From an uncultured delta proteobacterium (lineage in GTDB: Bacteria > Desulfobacterota > Binatia > UBA9968): a stretch of DNA of 64,000 nt. Within the stretch, counting starts at the first letter, position 1; each line of letters starts with the position of its first letter. Below are positions 30,234 to 46,063 of this stretch, one piece after another. A program made the translations under genes and the position numbers. The stretch is taken from contig CAVUVW010000013.1 in NCBI GenBank assembly GCA_963745035.1, positions 672,001-736,000 of the forward strand, given 5' to 3'. The notes beneath the pieces are model-generated. The model searched no databases, was not told the origin of the DNA, and worked only from the letters and a program-made list of their open reading frames with translations.

Positions 30234-31523
30234 TTATTCGCTCTGCCTGCCATCGCTTTGCAGCGCCTCCAGGGCTTTCTCAATCAATTGCCGTCTCAAC
30301 TTTTTTTCGTCCTCCGGCAGGAGACTCGCGTCGCCCACCACGTGCACGATGCCGTTGCCGAGCACCAGGCGATTGGCCCCGATCATTTTTGCGACCGGTA
30401 AAGCCGAGGTGATTTGCACCGTCGGGATACCGGCCTTTTCCAATTCAGTGGTGATCGCAGCGCCGCTGCGCGTGCTCGTCCCTCACGTGGAAGTGAGAAT
30501 CACCGCATCGACGCCGAGCTTTCTCGCCTTCTCCGCCATCTCGCGCCCCATGCGGCGGGTGTTGGACAGCGGATTGGCGAGACCCGACGTCGAGATGAAT
30601 TCACCGCACAACGCACCGATGGCGCCGTCGCTTTCGAGCTCGCGCATCACATCCAGCGGCACCAGCCGGTGGGGATCTTGCCGGACGAATTGCGGATCGT
30701 AGCCGCCGTGCGAGATCTCATAATCTTCGCCGCGCAGATCGTCGCGGCCCTCGATGTTGTAGGCGCCCCACCGTGTCGCCGCCGAGCCCTGGATCTTGTC
30801 CGGATTGCCCTTCGGCACCAGACCGCCGTCGGTGATCAGCATCACTTTCGCTTTTGCGAGGTCGCCGACCGGCGGCGGCATCGGTATGGGCGCGAACGCC
30901 GCCGGCGCCATTTCCGATTCGAACGGCCGGCCGGTGAATTTGGCCAATGCCATTTCGACCAACCGCTCTCCAGCGGTCTTCTCCACGAACTGATCGCGAA
31001 TCAAGCCGCGCGGGATGTAGCCCTCCTCTTTTGGCGAACCGATCCGTTGTTGCTGCATCAGCTTAGGGGCAAATTGCCCCATCTTCGCCAAGACCTCGCG
31101 CATCTTCCCGGCGTTGTCTCCCGAGTCGATGATGTACAAGGATTCACGGTAGAGATCGACGCCGGGATTCTCCGGCGCCATGGCCGTGATCGCCGGAATG
31201 CCGAGCTGCGCCTGCGCCGCGGCACAAAGCGCGCCGGCCGCCATGCCATATCGTCCGGCGAGAAAGCACGGACCTGCGACGAGCAGATCTGCGCGGCTCT
31301 CACGAATTTTCTCCAGCGCCGCGCCGACAAACGCCTCCTGCCGCTCTACCGCGTAGTTATCGCCGCACACCAGCGTGAGCACCACCTGCGAATCGGCGCC
31401 GAACGCCTGCGCGAGCAGCTGCCCGGGCCCGACCGCCTGCGCGCGCGCTTCAAGCGCCGCTCCCGCTTGCTCCTCGCCGCCGAGCCCGCCGAAAAACTGA
31501 TTCAGATAATGGGCGATGCGCAT
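30234..31523 (-). CDS. grdB: Glycine/sarcosine/betaine reductase selenoprotein B homolog; Sec at TGA 30483-30485
   Basis: RIAHYLNQFFGGLGGEE, VCGDNY, AGPCFLAGRYG, HGGYD and DAVILTST-TGA-GTSTRSGA, continuing in frame into EKAGIPTVQIT...IGANR. Confidence 0.9.
30456..30470 (-). promoter_or_regulatory. SECIS-like hairpin CGCAGC-GGC-GCTGCG, 12 nt after the UGA
   Basis: Perfect 6-bp stem with a G-containing loop at a typical bacterial SECIS distance. Confidence 0.6.
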
Positions 31524-31578
31524 ATTCAACACACTCTCAGGCACGGCATTCCCGTGTCCTGTTGTTGCCTGTTGCCTT

Positions 31579-38267: not shown

Positions 38268-39236
38268 ATGACTGATGGAATAAGATTTGCTGCCGTCCTG
38301 GTCACCAATTTCCGGGAGTTTTTGGTGCCCCTGCAAAACGACCTCCAATCGCCGCGGAGCCTGAGCCAGTCGAAATTGCCGCACAAGAGCAAAGGGGAAC
38401 TTGTTGCCCTCCCCGCCACTCCATCTTTTTCGCTCGACGAAGCCAGTACGATTGTCGAAATCGAGGTTCGGGCCGACCAACTTCTGAACTACATCGACAA
38501 GCTCACGTCTTTCGCCGACCGGGCTTGCAGCGCAGCGATTCGTCAGACTGAAACGGCCCATCGCATAGAAGATCGGTTCACTGAAATCGCCGATTTGCGC
38601 CGCACGCTCGAGCACCAGAACGCAAAGCTTCAAGAGCAGCAACTCGCCATGGTCCGCTTGGAGCAACAGTCGAAGGCGCAAATCACTGCCCTGGAAGTGC
38701 GGCTGCGCCAGAACGAAATGCAGCGAGCCGAAGAGAAACGACAGGACCTCTTGCGCGGCGAGAACGCCGGTCTCGTAAGCCGCCTCAAAGAAGCCGAAGC
38801 GCTCGTCCCACAAGTCCAAGAACGCAATCACGACTGGAGCGAACCGCTCGGTCAAGAGCTGGAAGCTCTGAAACTTCAATTGGCCGAACGAGACGAAACC
38901 ATTCAAGCCAAGAATGTCATGATCAAACAAATCGAGAGCGACTCACGCGCTAAGATCCTAGACATCGAGCAGCGCTTGCGCGACGCCGAGAAGGCACTCG
39001 AAGGTCATGAGGCGATACTGAAAGAAAAAGACGCCGTGATTCGAGCCACAGCCCTCAAAGAGGCGGAGATGGGCAACCTGATCAAACGTCTGTCCGCCGA
39101 ATGCGCCAAGCTCAACAACGAGCTTCAGGAACGAAACCGAGCCCTTTCCCAGAACCACGGCACCCGCGCAGAACCCCGCGCCGACGCCAACATTTGGCGT
39201 CGGGTGATCGGCCGCTTGCAAGAAGATCCGCAGTGA
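38268..39236 (+). CDS. Long coiled-coil hypothetical protein (start uncertain)
   Basis: E/Q/K/R/L-rich heptads over about 230 aa; C-terminal IWRRVIGRL. Confidence 0.7.
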   Translation: MTDGIRFAAVLVTNFREFLVPLQNDLQSPRSLSQSKLPHKSKGELVALPATPSFSLDEASTIVEIEVRADQLLNYIDKLTSFADRACSAAIRQTETAHRIEDRFTEIADLRRTLEHQNAKLQEQQLAMVRLEQQSKAQITALEVRLRQNEMQRAEEKRQDLLRGENAGLVSRLKEAEALVPQVQERNHDWSEPLGQELEALKLQLAERDETIQAKNVMIKQIESDSRAKILDIEQRLRDAEKALEGHEAILKEKDAVIRATALKEAEMGNLIKRLSAECAKLNNELQERNRALSQNHGTRAEPRADANIWRRVIGRLQEDPQ

Positions 39237-39272: not shown

Positions 39273-40265
39273 TTAATCGAACATGCCGGCGCGATCGAGA
39301 CGCTCGACGAAAGACGAATCGATCAGCGACGCGACATTGATGTTCTTCGCCTTGGGATTGGATTCGGCGATCATTTCCAAAAGCAGCTTCATGGCGGCCG
39401 GGTCCGCATACGGCTTCTTGAGCATCATGTCTCGGTAGGTTTCGTAGCCTTCCTCGATCATCGCGCGATTTTTCTCCAACGGCAGCCGCAGATATTTGGC
39501 CAATATCCGCATGCTTTCCTCTTTGTTGGCCTTGTTCCGATTGAACTGCATCCCTTCGACCAGCGTCGTGACGAACCGCACAACCGTGGCGGAATCGTCG
39601 CGTAAAGTTTTCTCCGAGACCGCGACAATGTTGCGCAAATACGGCACGTCGAGCGGCGCCAGATCCACCAGCAGCCGGTAACCTTCCTTGGCGGCCATCG
39701 TGGTGTACGGCGGATCGAGAATGGCCGCGGCAACCCGATTGGCGAGCAGCGCCTCGAAGCGCGCGGTTTTGCCGCCGATATTGAGCGGCACGACTTGATC
39801 TCGGGACATACCGAGTTCCTTCAAGCTTAGCAGCAGCCCGGTGTATGGCAGGCCGGAAAAACCGGTGATCGCCACAGACTTGCCGCGTAGCTCGGCCGCG
39901 GAGCGGATCGATGGGTGAACGACCAGTGCGAGGTTCAAGCCGCGCGCCGTCCCCATGACCATCTTGACCGGGAACCCGCCAAGAGCGCTATGCACGACTT
40001 TGTCCGGCGACGTGAGATCGAACTGAATATCGCCCGATACCAGCGCGTTGATGTCGTTGCTGCGGCTGAATGTCACCATGCGCGTATCGAGATCGCGCTT
40101 CTTGAAAAATCCCTTTTCCTCGGCGATGTACGCCGGCAAGAACATCGCGCCGCGCACGCCCTCGCCAACGATGATCGTCTTGGTTTGCGCGCAAACGTCA
40201 CCGGCGAATGAGGCAACATATAGCGCGGCGGTGACCAAGCAATATGCAAATCGATTCATAACCAT
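39273..40265 (-). CDS. ABC substrate-binding protein, NMT1/SsuA family
   Basis: Signal peptide, EEKGFF, ALVSGDIQF, ELRGKSVA and IDSSFV motifs. Confidence 0.88.
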   Translation of the reverse strand: MVMNRFAYCLVTAALYVASFAGDVCAQTKTIIVGEGVRGAMFLPAYIAEEKGFFKKRDLDTRMVTFSRSNDINALVSGDIQFDLTSPDKVVHSALGGFPVKMVMGTARGLNLALVVHPSIRSAAELRGKSVAITGFSGLPYTGLLLSLKELGMSRDQVVPLNIGGKTARFEALLANRVAAAILDPPYTTMAAKEGYRLLVDLAPLDVPYLRNIVAVSEKTLRDDSATVVRFVTTLVEGMQFNRNKANKEESMRILAKYLRLPLEKNRAMIEEGYETYRDMMLKKPYADPAAMKLLLEMIAESNPKAKNINVASLIDSSFVERLDRAGMFD

Positions 40266-40294
40266 TCTCCCCAGACTAACACCTCATTGGTCCA

Positions 40295-41903
40295 TCATTC
40301 CGATCTTTCCACTGCCACCGTCTGCAGGTGCGTCCCTGTGCGCCCCGGGATGTACGCGGATTTCGCGCCGGCACCGCCGGCGACAACGATCCAGATGTCT
40401 TCGGGACGATCCACGGCGCCGACTTCGCGCGCCGACTCGTTGTTGAACCACATCGGCCGGCGCTTCGAAAGCAGCTCGAGATTTTCGTCCGAGATCTTTT
40501 CATACGGGACTCGAGCCATGGCGAACAATTCCTGGCGGATGGCAGCCTTCGAATATCCCGCAGCCGCAAAGATAGCTGCGTGCTCCGGACAGACGACAAA
40601 GAGAACTTCGGTCGTCGTCACTCCGCTCGCCAGACCGCCGGCCATGGTCAGCGCGAAGGTTTTCAGCAGTCCTTTAGCGGTCTGACTCGCCATATCGACC
40701 GCGCTGTAAACCCCGCTGCAGCCGGTTACGTGCACCGTATCCATCGTTGCACGGCAACCGCGCTCGACATGCAATGGCTCCCAGGGATTCTCCTCCTCGT
40801 TTTCCCCAAAACAGAAAGTATATTTCGCGGGCTGGCCGACCGTCGATTTATCGAACTCGCCGGGAGCCGCGCCGCCGACGTTGGTCAGGGTCAAGCGCAA
40901 CGCTCTGCCGATGGTGGCGTTCGCGCGCCAGCCCTGGCCGAGCACGTTGGCGCCGCAGTTGAGTGTCCAGGCTCTTGCGGCAAGGACCGTTGACGATAAT
41001 CATCGGCGCGACGTTGCCGGTGGTGGTCTGCACGCCGTCAAGATTGAAGCCGGGCTTCAGCACACCTTTTACCGCGGCGACCACCAACGGAAAATATTCC
41101 GGCAAACATCCCGCCATCACCGCATTAGCGGCGATCTTTTCGACGCTCGCGACGCCGTTCAACGGCGGCAGCACACCGAGCACGAAATTTCCGTCCAAGC
41201 CACCGGCCGCGATCATTTCATCGACCGCCGCCCGTGTCGGCGGCAGCACCGGCAGACCGTCGCTCCAGCCGCGGCGTATCAGCTCTGCGAACAACGCGCC
41301 AGGATCGCTTGAAAGCTTGATCGCAGAATCCAAAGTCGGAACTCTGTCGCCGGACGCCTGCGCTGCGGGCCGGCTTTGACGGAGCAGATCGTTCACGATC
41401 GAATCGACCGTCGACTCCGCGAGCGCCTGCAATTGAACCAGTGAGATCGTCCCCACCGGATGCGGCACTTTCACCAACGGTAAATCTGCCATGCCGCGAT
41501 TCTGCGCTTCGGTTTGCGCCAGCTTGAGAAACTCCGTTGAAACCACCGTCGCGGTGGGTATGCCGGCGCCTTCGAGCTTGACCGAGTCGTGGATACTCCA
41601 CGACGTGCACGAACCTCAATCGGCGAACGCGTTGATCACCACATCGCAGCGACCGATCAGCTCCGGCAGGCACTCGGCTTCCGTGCGGCTCATCTTGCGC
41701 CTGGGCACCAGCTCGATATCGCTGTATCGCTGCGTGAGCAACGCGCCGATCCATTGAAGAAATTTGTCGGCATTGGGTTTGTTGTTGTCGAGCAAGCCGA
41801 CGCACAGTCCGTGGAGACTGCCGCCCCGGCGCTCCGCCACCCCGGTTCTCTTGCCGGCGCGCTGTCCGACCGGACTGATGATCTCAATAGTGTCCGCGCT
41901 CAT
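40295..41903 (-). CDS. UGSC-family selenoprotein fused to a WSDGLPVLPPT-type partner domain (~535 aa); Sec at TGA 41616-41618, frameshift near 40964
   Basis: GLLDNNKPNA...NAFAD-TGA-GSCTSWSIHD...AGIPT reads in frame into ORF 40848..41546. Removing one base restores NCGANVLGQGWRANATIGRA. Confidence 0.85.
41586..41604 (-). promoter_or_regulatory. SECIS-like hairpin GTCGTGGA-GTA-TCCACGAC, 11 nt after the UGA
   Basis: Perfect 8-bp stem with a G-initiated loop at canonical spacing. Confidence 0.7.
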
Positions 41904-42085
41904 TGACGCCTCCCGAAGCACGCGCCTGCACTACGTGCGGCGATGACTCGCAACATGGGTTTCACTCGGAATCTTGGGGCGCATGATGGTCAACTCTGGG
42001 CCCACAGTAGTCCCGTTGAACGCCGCCGCGCAAGGCTGATCGAGGCGAAATTAATTATGAAAAGAGTTGGCGAGGATTTTAGAGT

Positions 42086-45000
42086 TTAAATGCCGTCGAC
42101 GTTCGATGCGACCAAGCCCATCTGGTCGTCGGATTGACTCTTGTCGGCGGGCCGCGCCGCCGCTGAGCCTGCGCTGACCGGCAGATGCACGATAAACGTC
42201 GAGCCGCGTTCGAACTCGCTTTGCACCGCCACACGCCCGCCCAGCAGATCGACATATTTTCGCACGATATAAAGCCCCAGGCCGACGCCGCCAAACTTCC
42301 GCGTAGCGGAACTGTCCACCTGCTGAAACATGTCGAAAATGGTCTGGATCTTTTCCGCGGGGATGCCGATTCCGGTATCGGCGACTTTCAACTCGATCTC
42401 GTTGGTCGCGGCCAGGTGGCGGACGGAAATCGTCACCACGCCCCGATCGGTGAACTTGATCGCGTTGTTGACCAGATTTTGAAGCACCGCCTTCAACTTT
42501 TCGTCGTCCGTCGCCATCGACGGCAAGTCGGTCGCATATTCCCAAGCAATCGCCAGGTCCTTGCCGAAGGGGATGTTGTAGTTTCGCCGCAGCTCGTCGA
42601 GCAGGCCGACCAGGTCCACCGGCCGCGCGCTTGTCTGCACCGCGCCGGCCTCGATCCGGGTGACCTGCAACACGCCGCTGATCATGTGGAAGAGGTCCAT
42701 GGCCTGGCTGCTGATCGTTTCCAACGCTCTTTTCTGCTCCTCGCTCACGTGGCCGAGAATCCCCTGCATCATGATTTCAGTGTAGCCCTTGATGACGTTC
42801 AACGGCGTTCTCAGCTCGTGCGAGATGACGCCGAGAAACTCGTCTTTCCCTTGGCTGGCTCGCTCAAGCTCGATGGTCTTTTTCTGCAATTGCGCGAACA
42901 GCCGCGCGTTACCCGCCGCGACGCTGAGATGATAGGCGATGGCGTTAATCAGTTGGACCTCGCTGTCGGAAAAGTAATAGGGTTTGCGGCCGAGAAAATG
43001 CATCACTCCCAGTCCTTCGCCACGAACCTTTAACGGAATGAGAAACGAGCTGCGAAACCCCGCCTTGAACAAGTATTTGTTGTGCGCCAGTTTATCGTAG
43101 ACTGGATCGGAGGCCATGTCCTCCACGAACGCTGCCTTGCCGGTTTGGACCACCTTGCCTAATTGGCCCTCTCCGGCGCCGTAGCGGAACACGAGCTGGA
43201 CGCCCTCAGGCATGCCGCAGTGCGCGACCAGACGCAGGTCGCCGTTTTCTTCATCGCTCAAATAGATCCGCGCCGCGTCGAAGTCGAAAATCGCCAATAC
43301 CTTTACCATGGTTTGGCCGAGCACGGCGTCGATGTCCAGGGACTCGCCGGCGATCCCGGCAATCGAGTACAGCGCGGACAGCTCTTTAGCTTTGGCGGCG
43401 GTTTGAGAATAGAGCGTGGCGTTTTCGACCGCGATGCCGATTTGATGGGTCATCGACATCAGCAGGCGCGTCTCATGGGCCTGGAGTCGGCGCGCCTCGC
43501 GGCCGACAAATACCGCCACACCCCATGTCCTGAGCTTGGTCGCGACCGGAAAAGCCGCAAAGAAGCCGGCGCTCGTGGACTCGAGAATTTTGCTGTGACT
43601 GAGCTCCAAATAGCGCGGGTCGTTTCTGACGTCCTCGAAAACGAAAACCTCGCCGGTTTCCGCGGCTCGACCGACGATGCCCTGCCCGCGCTGGAAGCTA
43701 CCGAGCTTGGTCCACAGCTCGGGTTGCTCCTCGAAAACTGCGGCGACGCGCAGTTCGGTCATCTCGGCGTCAAAAAGAAAAATCCGCGTGGCGTCGAAAT
43801 GAAAAATCTCGGTGACCTTTTCTATCGCCGACCGTAGGGTCTCGGAGAGGTCCAAAGAGCGGGTCGCCGCAATCGTGAGCGCGTGCAAGGCCGAAAGCTC
43901 GCCGGCGCTCTGCCGCGTTTCGTCGTAGAGCATGGCGTTATGGATCGCGATGGCGGACTGTCCCGCCAGGGTGGTGAGGAATTCGATTTCTTCGTCGCTG
44001 AAGGAATGCTCCTCCTTGGTGAAGAAGGCGATGAGCCCGAGGAGCTGATTTTTCGCGACCAGGGGAATTCCGAGATACGAGACCAGCCCCCAGCGATGGG
44101 CGAAACGATGGTCGTCGCTGCGCGGGTCGGTCCGCAAGTTGGCAATGGTGAGAGGAATCTTGTTTTCGAGCACGATCTTGGCAAAACCATGCATCGGGCG
44201 CGGATTGCCCGTCCGCCACTCGCTCTCGCTGATATTGCGGCACGCCGCTGGCTCCAAGGTTCCCGTTTCCTTGTTGATCAGGCGGACGGTGGTCACGGCC
44301 CCGGGTAAGACCAGTTCGACTTTCTCGAGCAACAGATCGAGCATGGAGCGGAGGTCCAGGGTCGAAGTAATCGCCATTTCGATATCATGCAGCGCTTCGA
44401 GCCGCTGGAGGTTTCGTCCAAGCCGCTGGCCGGCGGCGACGGCCTCATCCCGCCGGGTTTCCAGCGTGGCGGCCATCCGGTCAAACGACGCGGCGACCCG
44501 TCCGATTTCATTACGATCGTGCGGCAATCCGGTGCGCGCGGCGAGATCCCCGGCGCCGAGCCGCTCGCTCGTGCTCACCAAAGTGCGCAGCGGCGCCAAT
44601 ACGAACGTGTCGCCGCCATACCAGGCAGCAATGAGCGCCAGCGCAGTCACAAGCAGCAGTGCTGCCAGATTGCGCCGCAACAACCAATCGGCGTCGGCCA
44701 AGGCAACGTCCGCCGGTATGCCGAGGCGCAGAAAAATCTGACCGTTGGCGGGAGTGTCGCCGATCGCTGTAAAGCCGTAGAACCGTTTCTTGCCGTCCAA
44801 CCCCGAGACTTCGGCAACACCTTCTTGCGCGGCGGCCGCCTTGCCGGTCCCCGCTTGCGGCCGATATTCGCCGATAGATGCCTCATCGTCGGGGTAACGG
44901 GCGAGCACGGTTCCATCGCGGTCATAGATCTCGAGAGAAGCATAACCGGGTAAGGCGGCGTTGCCGGCGATTTGCTTCAGATTGGCCACATCGAACGCGG

Positions 45001-45523
45001 CAAAAACCACTCCGATGACGCGCCCATCTTTTTCGATGATTGGATACCCTAGATTCAAGACGGCCTTGGCGACGATCGGTCCGGCCGGAAAGTTGTCGAT
45101 CGCCAGGCCCTTGTGTTTTATGGCGAGGCGAAAATGGCCGCGCTCCGCGATATCCACCTGCTGAGTCATCGGCAGCCCGCTGCAATACTGTCGCCCATGC
45201 ACATTCGCGGCGCCGAGATTGACGTAGAGCGGATATTCGGCCAGCAGATTCGCGAAAAGCGCGCTGCATGCCGGTTCATCTGGAGCACGCACCTCCCGCA
45301 GCAATGACAGCGCAACGAGAAGCTGGCGCGTGCCGTCGATCAGCCCCTTCTGACTTCCGGCGACGACGCGCGCCAGCCGCAGCGCTTCCCGTTTAGCGCG
45401 CTCGCTGTCTCGTACCCGTTGCTCGCCGGCGCTGTAGAGAATCAACGCGAGCGCCGGCAAGACAGCGAGCAGGACGAGGTGGATGAGCCGGGTGCGGAAA
45501 CTTGGTTGGGAAATTTTTTTCAT
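42086..45523 (-). CDS. Sensor histidine kinase (TM-Cache-TM-HAMP-3xGAF-HisKA-HATPase)
   Basis: Two TM helices, HAMP NEIGRVAASFDRM, three GAF repeats ending IAIHNA/IAVENA/VAAGNA, SHELRTPLN and NAIKFT. Confidence 0.9.
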   Translation of the reverse strand: MKKISQPSFRTRLIHLVLLAVLPALALILYSAGEQRVRDSERAKREALRLARVVAGSQKGLIDGTRQLLVALSLLREVRAPDEPACSALFANLLAEYPLYVNLGAANVHGRQYCSGLPMTQQVDIAERGHFRLAIKHKGLAIDNFPAGPIVAKAVLNLGYPIIEKDGRVIGVVFAAFDVANLKQIAGNAALPGYASLEIYDRDGTVLARYPDDEASIGEYRPQAGTGKAAAAQEGVAEVSGLDGKKRFYGFTAIGDTPANGQIFLRLGIPADVALADADWLLRRNLAALLLVTALALIAAWYGGDTFVLAPLRTLVSTSERLGAGDLAARTGLPHDRNEIGRVAASFDRMAATLETRRDEAVAAGQRLGRNLQRLEALHDIEMAITSTLDLRSMLDLLLEKVELVLPGAVTTVRLINKETGTLEPAACRNISESEWRTGNPRPMHGFAKIVLENKIPLTIANLRTDPRSDDHRFAHRWGLVSYLGIPLVAKNQLLGLIAFFTKEEHSFSDEEIEFLTTLAGQSAIAIHNAMLYDETRQSAGELSALHALTIAATRSLDLSETLRSAIEKVTEIFHFDATRIFLFDAEMTELRVAAVFEEQPELWTKLGSFQRGQGIVGRAAETGEVFVFEDVRNDPRYLELSHSKILESTSAGFFAAFPVATKLRTWGVAVFVGREARRLQAHETRLLMSMTHQIGIAVENATLYSQTAAKAKELSALYSIAGIAGESLDIDAVLGQTMVKVLAIFDFDAARIYLSDEENGDLRLVAHCGMPEGVQLVFRYGAGEGQLGKVVQTGKAAFVEDMASDPVYDKLAHNKYLFKAGFRSSFLIPLKVRGEGLGVMHFLGRKPYYFSDSEVQLINAIAYHLSVAAGNARLFAQLQKKTIELERASQGKDEFLGVISHELRTPLNVIKGYTEIMMQGILGHVSEEQKRALETISSQAMDLFHMISGVLQVTRIEAGAVQTSARPVDLVGLLDELRRNYNIPFGKDLAIAWEYATDLPSMATDDEKLKAVLQNLVNNAIKFTDRGVVTISVRHLAATNEIELKVADTGIGIPAEKIQTIFDMFQQVDSSATRKFGGVGLGLYIVRKYVDLLGGRVAVQSEFERGSTFIVHLPVSAGSAAARPADKSQSDDQMGLVASNVDGI

Positions 45524-46063
45524 TCGCTTCAGCCTGCGATCGACGGTTGCAAGTCGCGCGGCAAAATCCGGTTGCCGGGCAAAAAATCTAGCAACCTCCG
45601 TAAGAACTTTCCGCGCGACGGCGCAAACGGCGAATTCGACCCGGTCTGACGCATTCTCGGTAACCAATCGTGACCGCTCCGGAACGAATTTTTGATCCTC
45701 GGCGATCGCCGTTCAATCCAAGGCTTGTGCCATGGGCTGGACGAGCGACAATGATGGATTTCCCCGCCAATTCCCGCCTCAGCCCACACGGGCGTGTTAC
45801 TTAACCTCCAAAAATTGGCAAATTGGAGCACATGTTGACACGAATGATCGCGACAACTCGCCTGCGGCGGGTAGAAGCCAAGTTGCTGTGTACACGCGCG
45901 CGCCCTTCAGGCTGATTTCCAGCTCGGGGCGAGATCGTCAGAGCACGCAAGCGCGATCTGCGAGCGCCAAGCCGATTGCTTACGAAATTTTCCTGCGAGT
46001 GTTAAATTGAGCAATTCCACTGGGAAATCGCCGCTCGCACTGTGACGCGCCGCGGAGACGCAA

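Follow-up and report, generated by a model that had tools for sequence, protein, structure and literature searches.

The gene described here lies on the minus strand (41903..40295) of a 64,000-nucleotide stretch of DNA (the window) from an uncultured delta proteobacterium of the Binatia (contig CAVUVW010000013.1, positions 672,001 to 736,000). It is a single gene of 535 residues, which codes for a UGSC domain with selenocysteine (Sec) at position 96, followed after a short linker by a partner domain of about 340 residues. On the sequence evidence, the UGA at 41618-41616 is recoded as Sec via a conserved downstream hairpin, in a genome that contains selA, selB, selD and tRNA-Sec. The explanation that we consider probable overall is a two-domain Sec protein with a GrdB-related Sec module, which may perform reductase-type chemistry on a substrate bound by the partner domain.

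Gene structure and family assignment

Three minus-strand entries of the list of open reading frames (ORFs), 41616..41921, 40848..41546 and 40295..40945, merge into this gene. This had been proposed in an earlier note on the same DNA, and its coordinates (40295-41903) proved exact. The first two entries have a common frame, with only the TGA between them; the third is in the +1 frame and is set apart by a one-base frame break (see below). The read-through product, with an X at the frame break, has 535 residues. When the TGA is translated as U, the gene reads ...CDVVINAFAD-U-GSCTSWSIHDSVKLEGAGIPT..., and the frame runs without a stop through the linker into the partner domain. The coordinates of all features are given in Table 1.

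The product is a member of the UGSC family because its scores exceed the curated cut-offs of both family models, PF24696 (157.6 bits; cut-off 25) and NF041046 (137.3 bits; cut-off 125). The UxxC motif that had been read from the TGA (NAFAD-U-GSC) lies within both models, which span this codon. As in the family, U-G-S-C follows a beta-strand at the family position, and the domain is fused to an unknown domain; nothing essential differs. The window gene is thus a mis-annotated member of a known family and not a new kind of gene.

Selenocysteine insertion

(a) The source genome (G000; 28 contigs, 7.4 Mb, 92.6% complete) has a complete Sec machinery, with all scores over the curated cut-offs: selA (592.3 bits), selB (346.9 bits), selD (384.6 bits) and tRNA-Sec (76.7 bits). 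The genes selA, selB and selD are clustered (G000:C17:315264-319742), and tRNA-Sec is encoded about 52 kb away (C17:371273-371363). The selD gene carries an in-frame TGA and is, therefore, itself a selenoprotein gene.

(b) The hairpin that had been described as starting 11 nt past the UGA is present as a perfect 8-bp stem, GUCGUGGA-GUA-UCCACGAC (41604-41586). Its two arms are identical, including synonymous positions, in all 12 sequences compared (the window, its orthologs at nine loci, and two paralogs of the source genome whose proteins are only about 37% identical). The loop is either GUA or GUG. Two sequences, locus L032 and a paralog on contig C11, were missed by the motif pattern that was used to assemble this set. 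It is this conservation, and not folding energy, that makes the case for the hairpin. Compared to shuffled sequences, the 62-nt stretch expected to hold the selenocysteine insertion sequence (SECIS) does not stand out (z = -0.63; folding is as good in 55 of 200 shuffles). An Rfam scan of 40000-42200 gave eight matches, all far under the gathering scores, and no Rfam family at the hairpin. A bacterial SECIS must have, 16-37 nt downstream of the UGA, a loop that contains G.

(c) The TGA is retained among relatives. Across 41 genomes of the order (the counts include the source genome and one unpublished genome, G005, on which none of the conclusions rests), TGA stands at the Sec position in all matches that extend over it, and a Cys codon in none. 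The codon is also TGA, rather than TGC or TGT, in an independent sequencing run, where the contig of record 20 from run X2 has 0 differences to the window over 41520-41643. Family members without Sec mostly have Cys in the Sec column: 40 long representatives have CGSC (21), CGNC (1), CG[AT]S (5) or neither Sec nor Cys (9), with four being unalignable.

(d) A 39-base stretch (41586-41624), which comprises the Sec codon, the GSCTSWS codons and the whole hairpin, has a summed contig depth of 728 in run X1, with flanks at 5-10. Numerous loose contig ends begin exactly at its borders. This stretch is common, nearly letter for letter, to many different genes in soil metagenomes.

Fused and split forms

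UGSC and partner are two halves of one unit, which are fused in either order or encoded adjacently in many phyla. The earlier note had called the gene a Rosetta-stone fusion and had suggested that fused and split as well as Sec and Cys forms be counted. Both forms were found side by side, even within one genus, in the three sets described below.

(a) In the order-level sample, there are 10 orthologous fused matches and a further 20 distant ones (24-31% identity; one in the source genome), each of the latter with one TGA. Also numerous are UGSC genes of about 180-210 aa that adjoin partner genes of 355-416 aa.

(b) An even draw of 81 genomes from the phylum contained the family in 10 of them, with 16 fused matches (15 with TGA, one without) and seven split pairs, all of which have the TGA and have the partner within 540 nt. 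One genome of this phylum (G074) has 15 matches to the fusion protein over many contigs, mostly fused and with one TGA, which is a large paralog expansion.

(c) The third set was anchored on the partner domain and comprises the best 80 of at least 600 loci, from Chloroflexota, Methylomirabilota, Binatia, Proteobacteria, Actinobacteria, Bacillota and others. A UGSC match was found in 72 of these 80 loci; two of the eight remaining loci have no upstream DNA. The 84 UGSC matches that cover the Sec column have TGA there in 80 cases, Cys in two and another residue in two, the motif being UGSC in 68, UGAC in six and UGGC in three. Fusions account for 26 of the 84 (25 with UGSC first, one with the partner first), while 58 are split, with the two genes within 300 nt on the same strand (51), within 1 kb (6) or further apart (1). 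Among protein representatives, P0155 and P0184 are fusions in the order partner-then-UGSC, cut at the Sec codon by gene callers. Tandem partner duplications of 713-741 residues without a Pfam match occur among P0152, P0155, P0178, P0184 and P0229.

(d) The source genome has four units. Besides the window fusion, these are a split pair, a degraded pair into which a gene is inserted, and a distant fusion of 590 residues (the C11 paralog). In the degraded pair (G000:C13 at about 569400-570100, corresponding to about 7400-8100 of L076), an ORF that reads ...YIVDFVCLEKRLIIELDGGQH... stands between the UGSC and partner genes. The inserted ORF presumably resembles a DUF559-type endonuclease-domain gene.

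The partner domain

The partner domain (residues about 197-535) has no match to any Pfam or NCBIfam model at E values up to 5, either for the window protein or for an intact ortholog. Sequence comparison to solved structures revealed no relative, with one chance match (E 0.77). This is a large family. Of 8,000 candidates scored, at least 7,943 match at E 1e-5 or better. With the whole ortholog as query, 5,773 cluster representatives were obtained at E <=0.001 and 1,294 at <=1e-30. The closest database entries have 400-437 aa, begin just past the UGA, have a partial PF24696 match and are named 'hypothetical protein' or 'UGSC family (seleno)protein, partial'. Conserved features of the partner are W[ST]DGLPV.PPT, NAVMAGC, RANATIGRA and YT.C..ENE, and two of its cysteines are conserved at >=90%.

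The structure of an intact ortholog (L026, 67% identical to the window protein over the full length) was modelled with AlphaFold 2 (AF2) from an alignment of 146 sequences. The two-domain model has a predicted local distance difference test (pLDDT) score of 94.1 and a predicted template modelling score of 0.93, with only the linker being low. The partner modelled alone has a pLDDT of 95.9.

(a) In the model, the UGSC domain has a three-layer alpha/beta fold. For residues 27-180, generic Rossmann/flavodoxin-like chains are the best matches (Z up to 11.6), and the fold search returned flavodoxin, AzoR and CheY. None of these is specific. No thioredoxin is among the matches listed, though a missing row does not exclude that fold.

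(b) For the partner, no chain reached Z >=8 among 48,161 representatives. Among solved folds, class I fumarate hydratases (e.g., 7xky_A and 6mso_A) alone cover most of the domain, as found with two independent aligners: Foldseek (E 1.7e-4 for the full model and 7.9e-4 for the partner alone, with weak template modelling (TM) scores of 0.2-0.33) and VIA (Z 5.1-5.3 over 180-196 residues). The next matches are cyclic amide hydrolases (E 0.013 or worse) and pieces of the MmgE/PrpD and YjgF/chorismate-mutase-like types. The likeness to the class I (Fe-S) fumarate hydratases extends over most of the partner domain, but the root-mean-square deviation is above 5 A, the identity is 6-12%, and TM and Z are weak. 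The 4Fe-4S cluster of these enzymes has three Cys ligands, whereas the partner has only two near-invariant cysteines. Judging from the model, these fold matches are leads and not assignments, with no clear solved relative.

Relationship to GrdB

Local homology, as opposed to family membership, between the UGSC domain and the C-terminal Sec module of GrdB is supported by a comparison of sequence profiles. Alignment with hhalign of a UGSC profile (43 sequences) to a GrdB-like profile (27 sequences) gave a Prob of 86, an E value of 5.1e-6 and a score of 45.1. It spans 99 columns (UGSC 73-175 on GrdB-like 325-424) and places Sec on Sec and the LE..GIPT motifs on each other. The controls (the reversed template and 20 column-shuffled templates) scored at most 16.4, with E values of 0.17 or worse. 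The suggestion that the U-G-x-C...E-x-AGIPT pattern resembles the GrdB C-terminus is thus borne out.

In both GrdB/PrdB (PF07355) and UGSC, a beta-strand is followed by U-G-[ST]-x-T and then by ...LE-x-x-G-I-P-T. By analogy, Sec would be the reactive residue in both, and both would work with a second, larger polypeptide, which is encoded next door or fused. The systems also differ. UGSC is devoid of the GrdB body of roughly 320 residues, and its unit has no GrdA and no sign of a pyruvoyl group. The partner profile is unlike GrdE/PrdA (PF09338), and PF09338 has no match in the fusion protein. Within the library consulted, the literature search returned survey and review listings of UGSC only, and no paper that describes a UGSC-GrdB link or assigns a function to UGSC.

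A GrdB-like gene is encoded in the same window (31544..30234, minus strand; 436 aa; PF07355 417.5 bits) and is a hidden selenoprotein gene. Its Sec354 is encoded by the TGA at 30485-30483 (...DAVILTST-U-GTSTRSGAAITTELEKAGIPTVQI), the motif being U-G-T-S rather than UxxC; the ORF lists end the protein at 353 aa. A GrdE/PrdA-type gene (PF09338; 31582-32886, minus strand) is directly upstream. Relatives have 4-7 GrdB-like genes each, nearly all with one TGA (G005 is again included).

Genomic association with a binding protein in the genus

The earlier note had also pointed to an NMT1-type binding protein just downstream. This gene begins 29 nt past the stop codon of the fusion gene and matches PF09084 (67.7 bits). 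An NMT1-like gene is found downstream in 8 of the 10 loci searched; as for the exceptions, L023 ends inside the gene and L032 is a paralog with 40% identity. The NMT1-like protein is more strongly conserved (74-88% identity) than the fusion protein (64-74% in eight of nine ortholog loci; in the ninth, L031, the fusion protein aligns in two pieces, at 55% and 77%). Amidohydro_2 genes lie within 1.4 kb upstream in three of four extended ortholog loci, with further NMT1 genes in places. Two other close units of the source genome are each followed by an NMT1-like gene, at about 0.1 kb and 1.1 kb, and one of them is preceded by genes for an Amidohydro_2 protein and a thiamine pyrophosphate enzyme. 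The NMT1 link is a lineage-specific association that is conserved within the genus.

The downstream protein resembles SsuA/TauA/ThiY-type NMT1 binding proteins in having an NMT1 domain and a hydrophobic N-terminus, but it stays under the cut-off for the SsuA family (76.6 vs 163.5 bits). No permease or ATPase gene is among the 19 neighbouring ORFs scanned, which were picked by a crude filter on GC content at third codon positions, so that the binding protein appears as an orphan.

The nearest neighbours in the partner-anchored set were surveyed with crudely picked ORFs, one very long ORF being left out. Among the 139 ORFs at the 80 loci, TctC (8), MmgE/PrpD (5), Pyr_redox_2 (5), SBP_bac_5 (4), DAO (4), DSBA (3), Amidohydro_2 (3) and NMT1 (3) recur. 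Overall, orphan binding proteins for organic acids recur, as do, occasionally, disulfide-reductase-type flavoproteins.

Proposed function

We propose the following mechanism. The UGSC domain would be a reduced homologue of the Sec module at the C-terminus of the GrdB/PrdB selenoproteins, and the partner domain would, by analogy, bind a small substrate. The selenol may attack or reduce the bound substrate. The Cys three residues past Sec could then resolve the intermediate, leading to a Se-S bond, which an external dithiol or flavoprotein reductant would re-reduce. In this genus, the unit would be wired to the NMT1-like binding protein and to the Amidohydro_2 genes. A Sec-dependent reductase with a Cys relay and an external reductant is favoured over a redox-neutral reaction of the lyase or isomerase type because of the local homology to GrdB/PrdB together with the near-universal Sec and second Cys; resting on analogy, this choice has about an even chance of being right. 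A small organic acid or heterocycle that is imported is the probable substrate, because the genus couples the unit to an NMT1-like protein and to Amidohydro_2 genes.

The unit could instead be redox-neutral. The partner would then be a hydro-lyase, isomerase or hydrolase that acts on small carboxylates or cyclic amides, with Sec serving as a nucleophile or acid-base group, or with the UGSC domain being only structural or regulatory. The class I fumarate hydratases, as the sole solved folds that cover much of the partner, speak for this view, followed in the fold searches by the cyclic amide hydrolases and the MmgE/PrpD-type pieces. So do the MmgE/PrpD, TctC and Amidohydro_2 genes among the 139 neighbours and the family members without any Sec or Cys. 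However, the structural matches are all weak, with none at Z 8. Moreover, Sec is retained in 80 of 84 UGSC modules and the second Cys in most, as would be expected of a redox pair and as is seen in the PrdB-type UxxC proteins listed in Table 2 of PMC2398784, and Pyr_redox_2 and DSBA-like neighbours recur. We consider a redox-neutral unit unlikely.

Several observations nevertheless weigh against the proposed reductase. PF07355 does not match the UGSC protein at E values up to 5. A comparison of the partner with GrdE/PrdA-like and GrdB-body profiles revealed no similarity (Prob below 0.2; 0.17 for the GrdE-like profile). Because the partner resembles neither, the GrdB analogy, as far as sequence goes, is confined to a region of about 100 residues that surrounds Sec. 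The family as a whole does not share a fixed Sec/Cys relay, because there are members without Sec or Cys (9 of the 40 long representatives, with five more that keep Cys and are devoid of the second Cys) and because the C11 paralog, which has a U-S-T-C motif, has kept Sec and has lost both partner cysteines. The neighbours are heterogeneous, with 134 families across the 139 ORFs, and NMT1-like matches were found in only 3 of the 80 diverse partner loci by a low-sensitivity, home-made hidden Markov model built from three sequences. The window as assembled does carry a frameshift (see below). Finally, the reviews up to 2026 list UGSC without a function. As for NMT1 as a general partner of the family, this candidate was rejected on the count of 3 in 80 loci.

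A wider generalization of the reductase proposal is possible and is offered only tentatively. UGSC and partner would form a widespread class of Sec-dependent reductases, with a Sec module of GrdB/PrdB stock and a substrate domain that has neither a pyruvoyl group nor a clear solved fold relative. In soil bacteria such as this one, the class might reduce a small imported organic acid or heterocycle, which would be delivered by orphan NMT1/TctC proteins and processed further by Amidohydro_2 enzymes.

Integrity of the reading frame

The indel that had been suspected near 40964 was confirmed. At 40964-40961, the window reads actc, four bases in the place of a single Ile codon of the orthologs, and so has one base in excess. 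The orthologs read ...IVNGPCRNxLxINYGANVLGQGWRANATIGRA unbroken across this site. In each of eight congeneric orthologs, the frame stays open for 535-546 aa and contains a single TGA; two further ortholog loci are cut by a contig end or, in genome G003, broken at another place. In the contigs of all three DNA runs, which are from three studies, the region 40963-40967 is one base shorter. Those of X1 and X2 omit one base at 40963, and X6 has +1 and -2 there (net -1). Of the sampled words, a fraction of 0.95 is present in run X1, whose contigs on either side of the break match the window exactly. An RNA run, X15, also has contigs on parts of the gene; coming from an RNA library, these do not by themselves demonstrate that it is transcribed. 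Because neither the congeneric orthologs nor the contigs of the three runs have the extra base, it is an assembly (consensus) error or a minor variant, most likely an artefact. A programmed +1 frameshift was rejected for the same reason.

If the insertion were real, the gene would be a true pseudogene in this strain, with a product of about 313 residues and a nonsense tail. The extra base is, after all, present in the assembled window, the G003 ortholog is likewise broken, and related paralogs in the genome are broken too: a UGSC/partner pair, par3 (C13:568427-570554), and GrdB-like copies on C15 and C27 (G000:C15:302335-303440 and C27:167171-168458). These frame-split paralogs suggest a raised rate of indel errors in the assembly or real decay, and many frame breaks in one assembly fit either. 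The frame is, however, restored at this site in all three runs, eight orthologs are intact, and the sequence past the break is still 64-74% identical to the orthologs over its full length. A pseudogene is, on this balance, rather improbable. That the TGA is an ordinary stop, so that a gene for a 95-residue peptide would precede a separate gene and no Sec would be made, is scarcely credible: public gene callers do start close relatives after it (400-437 aa, partial PF24696 match) and TGA serves as the true stop of this gene and of several orthologs, but the UGSC models cross the codon in one frame (residues 7-173), Cys takes the Sec column in 27 of the 40 long non-Sec representatives, the hairpin is conserved at synonymous sites, and the Sec machinery is complete, including the TGA-bearing selD.

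Relation to previous work

The UGSC-containing family was named, and a 'UGSC/Unknown_1' fusion was printed, by Zhang and Gladyshev in 2008 (PMC2398784). The earlier note's description of the two-domain protein as undescribed, therefore, does not hold. From the text of that paper, we infer that 'Unknown_1' is the present partner domain. The paper also proposed a thioredoxin-like fold for UGSC. This is not borne out by the model, which is predicted to be flavodoxin/Rossmann-like, with a thioredoxin fold still possible. UGSC was given as a selenoprotein of unknown function in 2007 (PMC1976440), and the listings in PMC9312934 (2022) and PMC13188914 (2026) carry no function for it. Sec is far commoner than Cys both in the Global Ocean Sampling (GOS) survey (255 Sec vs 21 Cys UGSC genes, PMC2398784) and in the partner-anchored set (80 vs 2).

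With its 255 GOS genes, UGSC is among the commonest selenoprotein families of environmental bacteria (PMC2398784). The profile alignment provides a measurable link from this family to glycine and proline reductase chemistry. The locus is a clean, testable case, as it offers a single polypeptide, a confident two-domain model of an ortholog and a conserved ligand-binding neighbour, which may reveal the substrate. It also exposes an annotation problem: since the entries for close relatives start after the UGA, the active-site half is missing from public protein sets.

Feature coordinates and other neighbouring genes

Table 1. Features of the fusion gene and of the adjacent binding-protein gene (window coordinates).
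Feature	Position	Strand	Basis or remark
Shine-Dalgarno-like GGGAGG	41909..41914	-	5 nt upstream of ATG; read from the sequence
ATG start codon (MSADTIEIISPVG...)	41901..41903	-	ortholog starts at equivalent M..IEIV
UGSC domain, residues 7-173, predicted Rossmann/flavodoxin-like alpha/beta fold	41385..41885	-	PF24696, NF041046; AF2 model of ortholog L026 and fold searches
In-frame TGA, selenocysteine U96, motif U-G-S-C (NAFAD-U-GSCTSWSIHD)	41616..41618	-	same position in relatives
SECIS-like hairpin, 8-bp stem, loop GUA	41586..41604	-	begins 11 nt past the UGA
Low-complexity linker, residues about 174-196	41316..41384	-	poorly conserved; pLDDT of 57-80 at the corresponding residues of the L026 model
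Partner domain ('Unknown_1'-type), about 340 aa	40298..41315	-	near-invariant Cys in AVMAGC and YTFC-x-ENE
One extra base, a[c]tc in place of an Ile codon of the orthologs	40963	-	breaks the frame
TGA stop codon of the fusion gene	40295..40297	-	read-through
NMT1/SsuA-like solute-binding protein, hydrophobic N-terminus	39273..40265	-	PF09084 67.7 bits; TIGR01728 76.6 bits (cut-off 163.5)

Directly upstream of the fusion gene, the window codes for a histidine kinase of 1193 aa (42086-45667, minus strand) with dCache, HAMP, three GAF, HisKA and HATPase domains. At two of the four extended ortholog loci, L034 and L037, Amidohydro_2 and binding-protein genes are found in its place, and at L035 a histidine kinase homologue is encoded about 6 kb upstream. 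On the other side, an ORF of 322 aa (38268-39236, plus strand), which is rich in E, Q, L and R and has no Pfam match, converges on the binding-protein gene. It is syntenic (44-47% identity) in three of the four extended ortholog loci.

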